Below, one piece after another: positions 8,076 to 35,605 of a stretch of DNA of 45,433 nt. The DNA is from Candidatus Nomurabacteria bacterium (GTDB lineage Bacteria > Patescibacteriota > Minisyncoccia > Phycocordibacterales > UBA1006), in assembly GCA_020632195.1 (NCBI GenBank), contig JACKGA010000005.1, positions 1 to 45,433 of the forward strand. The letters are read 5' to 3'. Position 1 is the stretch's first letter. The number at the start of each line of letters is the position of its first letter. Position numbers and translations under genes: made by a program. The notes beneath the pieces are model-generated. The model saw only the letters and a list, made by a program, of their open reading frames with translations. It did no database searches and was not told the DNA's origin.

Positions 8076-8147
8076 TAATGCAACTATATACACATAATAA
8101 CTATATAATACAACACTTCTTTGTAATATTAGTATGTTATTTAAAGC

Positions 8148-8175
8148 TTTACAAAAGATTTTAAAATGTTATAAT
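8148..8175 (+). promoter_or_regulatory. Sigma70 promoter facing the island
   Basis: TTTACA (8148-8153), 16-nt spacer, extended TGnTATAAT (8167-8175); predicted TSS about 8182. Confidence 0.75.
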
Positions 8176-8181
8176 TACATC

Positions 8182-8915
8182 AAGAAAAGTTAAGGAAGTC
8201 AAAAGACAGATTTAACAGAGAGAGGTTCATTACAACAAATCAATCGACATCCCCTGTTGGGAGATGAAGGTTCCGCTTCTCGCGATATCATATACCGATT
8301 GGAACCCGGTCACTAGATATGTCGAGCACCTATCGAGCCTGTTGGCGTTCGAGATAGGCAGAAGAAGCCTAACGGTTCTGAAGAGATCCGCTGAGTATCA
8401 GGACTAACCCCCCTGATAACCAGAAATCTCTTCATAACCCCGGACCACGTTCGGGACAAACTGAGAGAGGAGAAACACATGTAAATATAGACACATGAAA
8501 AATACTTACCGAAAGAATAGTGGAGAGATAGGTAATAGAGAACAAACTTATACTTTGAAGTCCCTGTAGATGTATTACCCCCACTGTTCTCTCGGGAAGA
8601 GAGAGATTCAAAAAAGTTCACTGTTAATTAAAAAACATCAGATTCATATCTTTGTTGAGGTCAGAAAGTGACGTTAGAGGATATGAAGAAGCTGAATACC
8701 ATATGCGTGATGATCATCACAATACTTCTGGAGAGAGGTTTGGTTGTGATGGTCACCGCATACCCAGACATATATCATGATGGTACACATGAGACTCTTT
8801 GACTTAGATCCTGAAATATATTCAGGACAAGAGAGCCTCTTTGCTATCAATAACGTGATACAGAGAGGCTCATAGTCCCCGCCTACGCGAGGATAAACAG
8901 TGAACCTCTCTCAAT
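8182..8915 (+). ncRNA. Candidate large structured non-coding RNA, about 730 nt
   Basis: No + strand ORF of 60 aa or more; closing stem 8218-8229/8901-8912 (12 bp perfect); at least 11 internal helices with G-U pairs; upstream promoter. Confidence 0.7.
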
Positions 8916-8977
8916 ACACTCTTATTTAATAAGTGAAAGCGTTTTGTTTGTTTTATCAATGTGTCTGGGTATGCGGT
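8755..8977. repeat. Perfect 16-bp inverted repeat, 191-nt spacer
   Basis: ACCGCATACCCAGACA (8755-8770) vs TGTCTGGGTATGCGGT (8962-8977). Confidence 0.9.
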
Positions 8978-8990
8978 AGCAATATCGCAT

Positions 8991-9045
8991 GTTGCATTCA
9001 TATCATTGATATTTCACAAAGAGATATTAGTGATATGAATGCAAC
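8991..9045 (+). promoter_or_regulatory. 25-bp hairpin containing the ATG at 9035
   Basis: 8991-9005/9031-9045 15 bp perfect, plus 10 bp with G-U pairs, loop ACAAA. Confidence 0.75.
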
Positions 9046-9193
9046 TTCACTAAAAACCGTTACGCTTCCGGGCGTAACGGTAGTTGGTAAGATTGATCTT
9101 TCTAAATTTACCACTAAAGGTGGTAAGAGAAGAAAGAGAAGCTTCAGAATTCGACCAGCCACAAATGTGCTGGGAGATTTCTTGAAGAAGTAA
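9035..9193 (+). CDS. Small basic peptide (52 aa)
   Basis: MNATSLKTVTLPGVTVVGKIDLSKFTTKGGKRRKRSFRIRPATNVLGDFLKK; the ORF-track GTG extension runs through structured RNA and looks non-coding. Confidence 0.55.
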   Translation: MNATSLKTVTLPGVTVVGKIDLSKFTTKGGKRRKRSFRIRPATNVLGDFLKK

Positions 9194-9237
9194 TCTTACC
9201 AAAATCGGCTCCCGCATCCTCGGGAGGATAATGATGT

Positions 9238-9459
9238 GTGATCCTGAACAATAGTAAGGAAACACACATAATGGGTCTGGTGTGCCTCTTCGCCAGCTGC
9301 AGGGTTGCAGAAAAAGAAGAGGCAGGGTATCGGTATCTGATCAATGGTTATGATCGAGATACCACTCTTATTCACTTCATCAGTCATGGTGGGGTGATTG
9401 GGGTTTTCCCAATGTATGTCCCTGTAGACATTAAATGGCAGCGCAAAAAAGTAATCTGA
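9238..9459 (+). CDS. Small hypothetical protein
   Basis: 73 aa ORF after GGGAGG held in a CTCCC/GGGAG hairpin; start uncertain. Confidence 0.35.
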   Translation: MILNNSKETHIMGLVCLFASCRVAEKEEAGYRYLINGYDRDTTLIHFISHGGVIGVFPMYVPVDIKWQRKKVI

Positions 9460-9533
9460 AGCGAGATACAGATTGCAGGTTTTTAACTGGCGAGCGTATC
9501 ATGATTCTCTTGGAATGAATGATGTGATCAATA

Positions 9534-9863
9534 GTGGCACAATTACCTGAAAATATTGTGTTTCAAATCCTTAAATTTAAGGAGATGAAAGCAGAAAAAA
9601 TTTTACTTTGGGCGCAAATGCAAAGCACCGGAGTTGATTTTTCTGTAAACGGGATAACCTTCCAAATCTCTTACCTTGGTAAGGGATTCTGGAAGAGGTA
9701 TTTCCACAAGGGTTCACACCCTACTCGTGGAAATGTTTCTCAAACAGAAATGCAGGACGCTTTGGATAAAGCGACTACATTTACTCTGTATGAGGGGCAA
9801 AAACCTCATGAGGTTTCCCGTCAGGAATTCGAGCAGATGGTGGCATCTGTTTTTAATTTCTGA
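9534..9863 (+). CDS. Hypothetical protein
   Basis: 109 aa, natural composition, co-oriented with the island; start uncertain. Confidence 0.55.
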   Translation: MAQLPENIVFQILKFKEMKAEKILLWAQMQSTGVDFSVNGITFQISYLGKGFWKRYFHKGSHPTRGNVSQTEMQDALDKATTFTLYEGQKPHEVSRQEFEQMVASVFNF

Positions 9864-9906
9864 TACAGAAAAATCTGAATAAGATTCGGAGTGGAGGTGA
9901 GAAATA

Positions 9907-10119
9907 TTCTTATCAAGAGCTTGGCAACAGAACTCTCTAGCCAGTACTGAAAGGGGCTTGATACCGAGTAAGAAAACAAAAACAAACCGAGCAGGCGTAA
10001 GTTTGCTCGTGGTGATCCGCACCAACAAGATAGCGGGGTGGCGCAAGTGTCGAAATTCCAACAATCGGAATGGAGAACAGCTCAAGTCACAGCTTAAAAG
10101 CACCTTAAGCAAGTGCTTT
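9907..10119 (+). promoter_or_regulatory. Structured 5' leader of the AAA+ gene
   Basis: Several stems including CGAGCAGGC-GTAA-GTTTGCTCG (9988-10009) and AAAGCAC/GTGCTTT (10097-10119). Confidence 0.55.
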
Positions 10120-10126
10120 CAAGAAA

Positions 10127-30261: not shown

Positions 30262-30754
30262 TATAGAAATTTTAGAAGATGGAAAAAGATAGTTTGTAGT
30301 ATTTTTAAAAACCAGAAAACAACGGAGATTGAAATTCGATTTATCAGAACTTACAATTGCGCCAGCAATTGGTCTTATGATTATTGTAAGTTATCTTACA
30401 TGCATAGACACAAGTGATATTGAAAAGAAAAGTGATAATGACAGCATAGGAGAAAAGCTCCTAAAGCAGTCATCAAAACTGCCTTACAATCAGCATTTGT
30501 ATTGTTGTTCAATTCATGTAGTCAAAAAACTGCAAAAAACACCGCATTCAGTATCGCTGGGTAGCGGCTTTTTTGTACTCGTTTTTTTGCTACTCAACTA
30601 CCTCGCACTTTGAACCATATCCTCAATTGCGAGGGGTTAGGCTACTTAATTGTCGTTGTTAATTATACGTGAATTATTGATCGATGAAAATGAAGTAACA
30701 AAAAAGAACCCAAAATCATAATGATTCTGGGTTCGTTAGGATATTGTTCGGATT

Positions 30755-30958
30755 TCATAATCCATTTTTCGTATCTTGATATTCACTATTACCAATGAAC
30801 ATACCGCCAATAGAGAATACTCCGCTTATAACTAATGCGGCACTTAAATCAACACGATTTGCTGAGACGATAAAAGACAAAAAACCAAATAATAAACCAT
30901 AAAACACAATCCAAGAAAATCTTTTCATTTTTAATACATTTTGATTTAACTCCATCAT
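30755..30958 (-). CDS. Small membrane protein
   Basis: Two TM helices, AT-rich, followed by a GAACCCA/TGGGTTC hairpin. Confidence 0.55.
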   Translation of the reverse strand: MMELNQNVLKMKRFSWIVFYGLLFGFLSFIVSANRVDLSAALVISGVFSIGGMFIGNSEYQDTKNGL

Positions 30959-31079
30959 ACCCAAATCATTGACGTAGTCAATATCGCGTAGTATTTTCAA
31001 ATCAAATTGATAAAAATAATATCAAAATGGATAGAGATCAATTATTAGTATTCACTAACTTAGTGAGACACTTCAGTAA

Positions 31080-31373
31080 AAATTTACAGAAGGTAAAATC
31101 GACGAACTCCATCAGCATATTACCGATCTCGAAGAGGAAATTATCAGCTCAAAGTCAACAATTAAGACTTATGAGGATTTCCACGAACTTTGGTCTAAAA
31201 TGGCTAAAAATATACGTTCTATGGACAATATGGAGCAACTCAACGAATTCCTCCTAAAAGTCTTCACGAACTTTGTAGTAAGTCGAAAAAACGTTATTTC
31301 ACATACGTTAAATGCCCCTTTCGAGGCATTAGAACGTGCAAATGATGCAATTGTTTCGGACGGTGGGAGATAA
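31080..31373 (+). pseudogene. C-terminal remnant of a probable serine recombinase ending in tRNA-Val
   Basis: ~97-codon open frame without a start (KFTEGKIDELHQ...VFTNFVVSRKNVISHTLNAPFEAL...VSDGGR*); stop lies in the tRNA 3' end on the antisense strand. Confidence 0.6.
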
Positions 31374-34213: not shown

Positions 34214-35605
34214 ATGGAAAACTTTCCAAAACCTGTAAATAAACAAGAGCAAAAAGAAGAAATCAAAAATCTTGAAGGTATTGATTTTGTATTTGAACAA
34301 TATCCTGAAATTAAACAAATAGCCCAAGAATCCCTTGAACCCTCTTTTGAAGATAAAAAACGTATATTTGAGATGTTACGGTCAAACCTTATTGATTCAG
34401 TACGTGATGTCGAAGACTATGAAAAATATAATGGTAATACTCTTGCAGTTAAAGATTTTTCTGAAGATTCTTATAAATTACTCTTGCAAGGATTGGAAGA
34501 AAAGAACATTGATGTACAACCAAGGTTAAATAAATTGAAGAAGGATCTTGAAGAGATTAATCTTACAAACGTAATGCCAGAAGGTGCTGATGTGATGGAT
34601 TATTTTAATCCTGCTACAGGTGAATTTTCAGTCTATAATTCTAAGGAAGAAAAAGATTCATTTTTAAAAAATACCGAACACGATATTGAGCTTTTAAAAT
34701 ATTTAGAGAACAAAGACGAGAAAGCTAAAGAAATATACGAAAAATATTTAGAAACTATTTTCCTCCAAAGTCAGATTAAGGATATTGTATATCACGGTGG
34801 TCCAGAAGGTATTGAGAAGTTTGACAAGAATGCAAAATCTTGTGACAACATAGAAAATAAAAGTAAGGGAAGATTTTTTACAGGAATATATAATCTAGCA
34901 AAAGTTTATGCAGAGAAAGCTCAAATAATACACGGACATTCACAGATTTACCCAGTGATAGTCAATATTACAAACCCAATTACCGTTACTGATAAGTTAA
35001 AGCTAGATGAAGAATTGTATCCAAACAATGATTCTATAATTCATGAATCTAGTCTTCAAACAGACAAATTTGAGGAGCTTGTTGTTTTTGAAACCGATCA
35101 GATCCATATTCTTGGCTCAAAAAAAGACCAAGAAATGTTTAAAGAGTTTTTGAATAAAAACGAAGGCGAATTATCAAAGCTAGAACTACCACCTATTTCA
35201 ATAGTTGAAAACCCAACAGAACTTCAAAAGAAAATAAAAGGTTCAATGTCTAGTATGGATTTTAATATAGAATCTGGTAATGATGAGATTGGTACATTTA
35301 CTTTGAATGTTATGGGTAGACCAGGTGAAGAAGGTTATGGATATTTTAATACCATTAAACTAGAAGAAGAATTTCGAGGAAAAGATTATGGTAAATCAGT
35401 ATACCTTCAAGTAATTAAAAAACTCAAAGAAGACAATAAAAAATTATCGACAGAATGGACATTAACAAAAGGAGCAGATGCTGTCTGGCAATGGCTTGTT
35501 GAGAATGGCTATGCTCGCGTTAAACAAGAAGGAGAACGTAATGAGGAAAATAAAGGTGCGGGATATAGTACGTATCAATATGAATCTTTAATCGAAGCAA
35601 AATAA
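34214..35605 (+). CDS. ART-like (ART-PolyVal) plus GNAT multidomain protein
   Basis: IVYHG...FFT...AKVYA...IYPVIVNITNP...EELVVF; C-terminal EEFRGKDYGKSVY GNAT motif A. Confidence 0.65.
   Translation: MENFPKPVNKQEQKEEIKNLEGIDFVFEQYPEIKQIAQESLEPSFEDKKRIFEMLRSNLIDSVRDVEDYEKYNGNTLAVKDFSEDSYKLLLQGLEEKNIDVQPRLNKLKKDLEEINLTNVMPEGADVMDYFNPATGEFSVYNSKEEKDSFLKNTEHDIELLKYLENKDEKAKEIYEKYLETIFLQSQIKDIVYHGGPEGIEKFDKNAKSCDNIENKSKGRFFTGIYNLAKVYAEKAQIIHGHSQIYPVIVNITNPITVTDKLKLDEELYPNNDSIIHESSLQTDKFEELVVFETDQIHILGSKKDQEMFKEFLNKNEGELSKLELPPISIVENPTELQKKIKGSMSSMDFNIESGNDEIGTFTLNVMGRPGEEGYGYFNTIKLEEEFRGKDYGKSVYLQVIKKLKEDNKKLSTEWTLTKGADAVWQWLVENGYARVKQEGERNEENKGAGYSTYQYESLIEAK

Follow-up and report, generated by a model that had tools for sequence, protein, structure and literature searches.

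A conserved long-range RNA helix that probably forms a pseudoknot in a large structured RNA of CPR bacteria

The locus and its conserved elements

The window, by which we mean the whole 45,433-nucleotide stretch of DNA that was analysed, is contig C5 of a 576-kb, seven-contig assembly, and the inverted repeat considered here lies within an ORF-poor gap at 8094-10126. Upstream of this gap are genes for a GNAT-domain protein and a divergently oriented TrmB-type regulator, and downstream of it is a MoxR-VWA pair. We identified a strong sigma-70-type promoter on the + strand at 8148-8175 (TTTACA-16-TATAAT with an extended -10 TG, 11 of 12 matches), and an equivalent box, TTGACAAAA...TGCTATACT, stands at the same place in all ten homologues. 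Transcription of the region from the + strand is predicted from this conserved promoter. Between the TrmB start and the RNA promoter there is also a palindrome (TTGTAAC-N7-GTTACAA or TTGTCA-N8-TGACAA), which is degenerate in the window (8094-8147) and holds the same position in L017, L018, L024 and L040-L042, the homologues that were read there. The palindrome is probably a TrmB operator, through which TrmB may regulate its own gene as well as the large RNA.

The transcript predicted to start at this promoter contains a series of structured elements on the + strand. The core hairpin of the RNA family, with the loop CUAACC, lies at 8373-8440 and was captured in a covariance model, R1. A second hairpin, P-x (8711-8755; arms 8711-8722 and 8744-8755, loop motif GGAGAGAGG), directly abuts the long pairing that we call helix B and shows both-sided changes at columns 594-600 with 620-630. 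The apical part of the 3' domain includes a hairpin at 8833-8871 (GAGCCUC.../...GAGGCUC), the stem of which does not vary among four sequences. At 8973-8988 a small hairpin (GCGGUA-GCAA-UAUCGC) overlaps the base of helix B by the five nucleotides GCGGU; four sequences can form its stem, with loops of 4-5 nt, but show no covariation in it. Pairing within the window sequence further predicts a 25-bp hairpin at 8991-9045 that buries the start codon of a small ORF, and equivalents of this hairpin are readable in G9, G1 and L024.

The small ORF (9035-9193, + strand) encodes a basic micro-protein of 52 amino acids with the motif LPGVTVVGKIDL. Differences within its conserved block are distributed over the three codon positions as 131:43:296, which indicates that the ORF is coding. 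While a search with the single peptide gave no matches and Pfam held no match for it, a profile search recovered 17 further family members at E < 1e-6. These micro-proteins are conserved, basic and 50-57 amino acids long, and they are encoded 3' of the RNA in two clades. One of them, P0026 at L039 (ERZ27301260 k141_315733), is a mosaic with an L025-like N-terminus and a G9-like middle, which suggests recombination between clade-1 variants within one sample.

Downstream of the ORF, a further conserved structured RNA with compensatory changes in its stems was found at 9196-9405 on the + strand. It comprises a hairpin, CUCCCG/CGGGAG, after which come GGAGGAUAAUGAUG and a mini-ORF of 7 codons (MMCDPEQ; MMFCAEQ in relatives). 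The reading frame shifts between its conserved blocks, and the stretch is thus mostly non-coding RNA. Near the 3' end of the conserved region, GGGGTT (9399-9404) is complementary to the AACCCC of the core-hairpin loop (8407-8412), and these segments may make a second long-range contact; in G9 the loop reads AACCUU, which would leave two G-U pairs against GGGGUU. A 7-nt match between 8282-8288 and 8982-8988 was dropped as it is not conserved in G9.

Purine motifs resembling Shine-Dalgarno sequences (GAGAGAGG or GAGGAGAG) are found some five times in each RNA, in every clade, and they often sit in hairpin loops. In the window they occur at 8217-8229, 8459-8470, 8598-8610, 8731-8740 and 8860-8872, with only one or two CCUCUC partners. 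They could be protein-binding sites, ribosome-binding sites or alternative partners of A', the 3' strand of the closing stem described below.

A new RNA family in CPR bacteria

Homologous loci were collected along three routes. DNA and pattern searches led to syntenic copies in G009 (JAJOIF01), in G001 (CAZDPR01) and on one metagenome contig; homologues of the TrmB protein led to L025/L026 (TrmB 79% identical), to four strain-level G9-type contigs and to L036; and the micro-protein profile led to L037/L038, to L039 (right arm of the repeat only) and to L040, L041 and L042. A related-locus search seeded with the TrmB protein gave no matches, viral contigs searched with two patterns gave none, and a further contig scan with the clade-1 pattern returned G9 only. 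The promoter box, the core hairpin and the micro-protein ORF are common to all ten distinct loci, which fall into two main clades, and the inverted repeat belongs to clade 1 (the window, L025, G9 and L037).

The TrmB-homologue loci P0004, P0012 and P0013 (L031-L035) are without the RNA. In two of these RNA-less relatives a GIY-YIG gene of 83 amino acids lies immediately upstream of TrmB (L031, 2737-2988; L032, 1082-1333), in the place held by the RNA in the window.

Covariance model R1 matched 19 of 401 sampled genomes of the order (~5%), in 18 of 224 genera. There was one locus per genome, and the window hairpin was also weakly scored on the opposite strand. The order-level loci L046-L062 share the layout GAGAUCGGCUG - stem - CUAACC - stem - CAGAAAUCUC. 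A divergent TrmB gene adjoins the RNA in the window and in seven close homologues, and at least 10 of the 17 new R1 loci have a divergent TrmB homologue 370-730 nt upstream. No micro-protein was detected within 1.5 kb of these 17 loci, and the RNA family is therefore broader than a module of RNA plus peptide.

At gathering thresholds, Rfam 15 assigned three tRNAs to the window and no family to the RNA, and at E values up to 10 it added only chance miRNA and snoRNA matches, with GOLLD, ROOL, OLE, raiA and HEARO among the families searched. Our literature searches turned up no earlier description of a large RNA from CPR bacteria. The large structured RNA is thus new, being absent from Rfam and not found in the literature, and so far it occurs only in CPR bacteria.

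An inverted repeat that extends into a long helix

The left arm of the repeat, ACCGCATACCCAGACA at 8755-8770, is the exact reverse complement of 8962-8977, giving 16 perfect base pairs. The pairing continues to 19 nt between 8755-8773 (5' strand, B) and 8959-8977 (3' strand, B'), both on the + strand and identified by pairing and homologue alignment, with a single T:G at 8771/8961 that would be a G-U pair in RNA. The two 19-nt arms are separated by 185 nt. The first-pass annotation of this DNA had described a 16-bp exact repeat extending to 19 bp with one G-U, and the sequence bears this out.

Beyond a 5-nt/1-nt internal loop, the pairing resumes as an extension between 8779-8795 and 8941-8957 on the + strand, in which 15 of 17 positions are paired, including two G-U pairs that are invariant in four sequences. 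Arms and extension together make an irregular helix of ~38 bp that closes a 3' domain of 223 nt (8755-8977). The + strand of 8750-8982 folds into one rod with an apical multiloop at -98.1 kcal/mol (z -10.4), with the minimum-energy structure identical to the centroid, and the extension is present in the + strand fold and absent from that of the - strand.

The repeat did not arise by chance. Among 300 dinucleotide shuffles of 8094-10126, none contained a perfect inverted repeat longer than 15 bp (mode 10-11), whereas the repeat itself has 16, and by our estimate ~0.13 perfect 16-mer inverted repeats with arms within 1 kb would be expected in the whole genome (576 kb x 1000 / 4^16). The size of the 223-bp unit and its terminal inverted repeats do resemble a miniature inverted-repeat transposable element (MITE) inserted in the RNA gene. 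However, the arm sequence occurs once in the 576-kb assembly, and no target-site duplication was found at the flanks. The same position is, moreover, occupied in all clade-1 homologues, with covarying arms, and none of the 300 shuffles reached 16 bp. That the repeat is a MITE's termini or a chance occurrence is scarcely credible on these observations.

Conservation of the helix in homologues

Helix B was compared across four distinct sequences, which are its only carriers apart from one contig (L039) with the right arm alone. Since MAFFT misplaced the right arm of L025, which carries an insertion of ~100 nt, an anchored alignment of concatenated stem segments was used instead, and the pair counts refer to these excerpted segments rather than to the contiguous RNA. 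The helix measures 19 bp in the window and in L025, 20 bp in G9/L029 and 21 bp in L037 (with one C.A). Both sides have changed in 6 of 21 pairs, one position passing through three states (G-C, A-U and C-G), and four further pairs have changed on one side, to G-U; overall, 97.5% of cells in the anchored alignment of four sequences are paired. Additional both-sided changes are found in the extension. Shifting the 3' partner strand by 1-3 columns makes the pairing collapse, and the arms still pair although their spacing varies from 126 to 261 nt among homologues, the insertion in L025 included.

The covariation score of the whole tested structure (closing stem, helix B and extension) was reached by none of 500 shuffles, a figure inflated by shared ancestry and, with four sequences, not a formal significance test. 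As read from the four-sequence alignment, the covariation pattern of helix B is the classic one. The covariation check that the first-pass annotation had put forward for the repeat was thus carried out, with compensatory changes in four distinct homologues, and other stems of the same RNA contribute 24 pairs with both-sided changes.

The mismatches also discriminate between the strands. Of the five independent events in helix B that depart from Watson-Crick pairing, four give U.G on the + strand, and the two G-U pairs of the extension (columns 74:123 and 76:121), invariant in all four sequences, would read as C.A on the opposite strand. These events, the invariant G-U pairs, the + strand promoter and the other covarying stems together lead us to conclude that the repeat acts in RNA. 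That the arms pair in RNA, within a pseudoknot or in alternative folds, had been one of the readings first offered for the repeat, and the compensatory changes and the G-U pairs that fit the + strand only speak for it. In our view the repeat is very probably a helix in RNA and not a DNA element.

An equivalent of helix B was sought in the other clades (G1, L024, L036, L040, L041 and L042), and none was obvious. Helix B is therefore an addition specific to clade 1, built on the variable 3' half of the wider TrmB-linked RNA family.

The inverted repeat as a DNA element

Another reading offered at the outset was that of an inverton, in which a site-specific recombinase would flip 8774-8958 and thereby disable the closing stem. 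In its geometry, an inverted repeat of 16-19 bp around ~190 bp, the site is like phase-variable invertons such as fimS and the Bacteroides capsule promoters, and the genome does encode recombinases. The population of homologues tells against it, as one and the same orientation was found in ten contigs from at least four lineages (the window, L025-L030 and L037-L039), counting assembled contigs that cover the site or just its right half. Of the 19 arm positions, 6 differ between the window and G9, yet the two arms change together, while the flanks (GGTCACCG..., ...ATGCGGTAG) are conserved. Covarying arms between conserved flanks are the opposite of what is expected of a fixed recombinase site. 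Moreover, all four arm pairs are imperfect as DNA, with mismatches that are mostly compatible with RNA and of the G-U type.

The remaining hallmarks of known invertons are likewise missing. The sole promoter-like match near the segment is weak (9 of 12, 8750-8778) and overlaps the left arm, so that no convincing promoter lies inside, and no invertase is linked to the site. In three genomes checked, the ORFs for serine recombinases are large (431-563 amino acids) and of the integrase type, and Xer/integrase-type tyrosine recombinases number one or two per genome; the recombinases lie 13-29 kb from the repeat in the window and on other contigs in G009. With one orientation in ten contigs, covarying arms and neither promoter nor invertase at hand, the inverton proposal fared poorly, and we regard it as very improbable.

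A different inverted repeat was noted on contig C1 of the same genome as the window (G000), where three copies (30723-31124, 34640-35041 and 126490-126891) each carry a perfect inverted repeat of 29-30 bp around 343 bp. This cassette encodes a GIY-YIG protein of ~100 amino acids; two of the copies run in one direction and the remaining one in the other. In contrast to this cassette, which within its genome is present in several copies and in both orientations, the repeat studied here has none of these properties.

Two crossing helices and their likely order of folding

The large RNA is closed by a second long-range stem, formed on the + strand by strand A (GAGAGAGGTTCATT, 8218-8231) and strand A' (8899-8912), the latter inside the loop closed by helix B. 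Pairing between 8218-8229 and 8901-8912 is perfect over 12 bp and reaches 14 bp with one G-U. The strand order is A (8218), B (8755), A' (8901) and B' (8959), so the two helices cross, as the first-pass annotation had stated for the repeat and the 8218/8912 closing stem. Both are present in all four sequences, A-A' with 12-14 bp and B-B' with 19-21 bp. Strand A is invariant save for position 12, which is A-U, U-A or, in G9, U.U; with a single compensatory position, the support for A-A' comes mainly from conservation and energy. Calculated duplex energies are about -21 to -23 kcal/mol for A-A' and -27 to -35 kcal/mol for B-B'.

Two crossing helices, both conserved, could in principle be mutually exclusive states of a conformational switch, with the choice between A-A' and B-B' controlling the micro-protein or the activity of the large RNA and perhaps being set co-transcriptionally or by a ligand or protein. 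Nested minimum-energy folds of the full RNA favour B over A by only 2-8 kcal/mol, and since nested programs are forced to choose one helix and prefer B, this result also fits a switch. There are, in addition, short alternatives at both ends of helix B, namely the pairing of 8703-8707 with 8757-8761 and the hairpin at 8973-8988. Against these points, A' is left free in the B fold and exclusivity is not forced, and the competing local stems amount to 3-6 bp compared with 19-21 bp for helix B. The local competitor of the left arm, ATGCG (8703-8707, + strand) with CGCAT (8757-8761), extends the well-supported hairpin at 8711-8755 and could be a transient co-transcriptional intermediate. It had been described as competing with the repeat, and while the stem is present in the window, it is weak (3-5 bp) in homologues.

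Nor is there a visible expression platform, as B' overlaps neither the start-codon hairpin at 8991-9045 nor a terminator. B' ends 13 nt before that hairpin, no terminator was found after B', and nothing conserved emerged when either arm was compared with the start-codon hairpin or the ribosome-binding region for complementarity. The proposal that a co-transcriptional switch couples the large RNA to the downstream hairpin and peptide gained no support from the right arm; in truncated transcripts, moreover, the closing stem folds first, and the later helix needs no displacement of it. We regard a switch as unlikely.

The folding results are more simply accommodated by coexistence. In transcripts cut before B', A-A' folds fully (11 of 11 pairs) in all four homologues, and with helix B enforced, A' is left with 1-3 of its 11 nt paired, again in all four. 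A' is thus almost unpaired within the B-closed domain in 4 of 4 homologues, and a pseudoknot with strand A is the simplest reading. From these folding models, coexistence as a pseudoknot seems somewhat more probable than a switch. Taken as a whole, the explanation that we favour, at a probability of roughly 65%, takes the repeat to be a conserved long-range helix of a large RNA, crossing its closing stem and coexisting with it as a pseudoknot.

In such a pseudoknot, A-A' would form first, once A' has been transcribed. B' would emerge 46 nt after A' and capture B, displacing just the weak local stem of 3-5 bp and not A-A'. Within the resulting 3' domain, A' would stay free of local pairing in the apical part and pair with the distant 5' strand A. 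A-A' and B-B' would then coexist and hold the body of the RNA to its 5' end and its 3' domain, and the start-codon hairpin of the micro-protein would follow 13 nt downstream of this locked junction.

Possible roles in processing and assembly

The length of helix B invites a further hypothesis, in which an RNase III would cut the ~20-bp duplex and so free the micro-protein mRNA from the large RNA or excise the 3' domain. A duplex of ~20 bp, or about two helical turns, is the size that RNase III needs. The uninterrupted duplex is held at 19-21 bp in all homologues, which is unusually long for a structural helix, it lies exactly between the RNA body and the ORF, and the genome encodes an RNase III domain (134.6 bits). 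In these respects helix B is like the RNase III stems that flank rRNAs and those of excised intervening sequences, where a ~20-bp duplex joins segments ~200 nt apart at a functional boundary. It differs from them in enclosing the 3' domain only and not the whole mature RNA, and cleavage here is a candidate event. Processing does not exclude the favoured explanation, with which it is compatible; as the main account of the repeat we think it doubtful, while as a secondary hypothesis it is reasonable to place a processing site where the RNA body meets the micro-protein mRNA.

Two copies of the RNA might instead be joined into a dimer or a larger assembly by pairing of the arms, or of A with A', between molecules, an intermolecular contact having been among the readings first offered. 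The large bacterial RNAs ROOL, GOLLD and OLE form homo-oligomers (PMC12286853), and strand swapping of this kind would relieve the crossing topology. Yet 8750-8982 folded in cis gives a very stable, well-defined structure, and we judge intermolecular pairing to be quite improbable.

Relation to known RNAs and implications

A covarying long-range helix that crosses a conserved helix is also seen in P6 of RNase P, in the pseudoknots of tmRNA, in tertiary pairings of group I and group II introns and in ROOL, GOLLD and OLE. With the large, ornate bacterial RNAs, this RNA shares a size of 600-1400 nt, many covarying stems and a promoter of its own, which is predicted here. It is set apart from the known large RNAs by the lack of a match in Rfam 15, by a helix that is unusually long and uninterrupted (19-21 bp), by a micro-protein ORF predicted to lie on the same transcript, by the divergent TrmB gene beside it, and by its restriction, so far, to CPR bacteria.

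The arrangement of the 3' part is also reminiscent of hok-type mRNAs, in which fold-back inhibition between the 5' and 3' ends and metastable hairpins control a peptide of ~50 amino acids. Common to both are a long-range pairing upstream of a small ORF, a start codon buried in a hairpin and plausible co-transcriptional intermediates. In contrast to hok, the peptide encoded here is basic and hydrophilic and not a membrane toxin, the upstream RNA is ~800 nt long, no antisense RNA was seen, and helix B lies clear of the start region.

We conclude that the repeat is among the best-supported tertiary-level features of the large RNA and not a phase-variation switch. Helix B gives a concrete three-dimensional constraint for modelling or cryo-EM, and it sets a natural boundary for the RNA, which extends to at least 8977 and not to 8915. 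It also offers a mutational handle, by disruption and restoration of the pairing, on the function of the RNA and the micro-protein in organisms for which almost no regulatory RNA biology is known. More speculatively, and on balance against our expectation, helix B and the crossing closing stem might constitute a working device, whether as an RNase III stem, a conformational gate that frees or licenses the micro-protein mRNA from the large RNA, or a strand-swap contact that builds the RNA into a multimer like those of ROOL, GOLLD and OLE. If that were true, it would open a first way into the mechanism of a new class, restricted to CPR bacteria, that unites a large RNA with a micro-protein.
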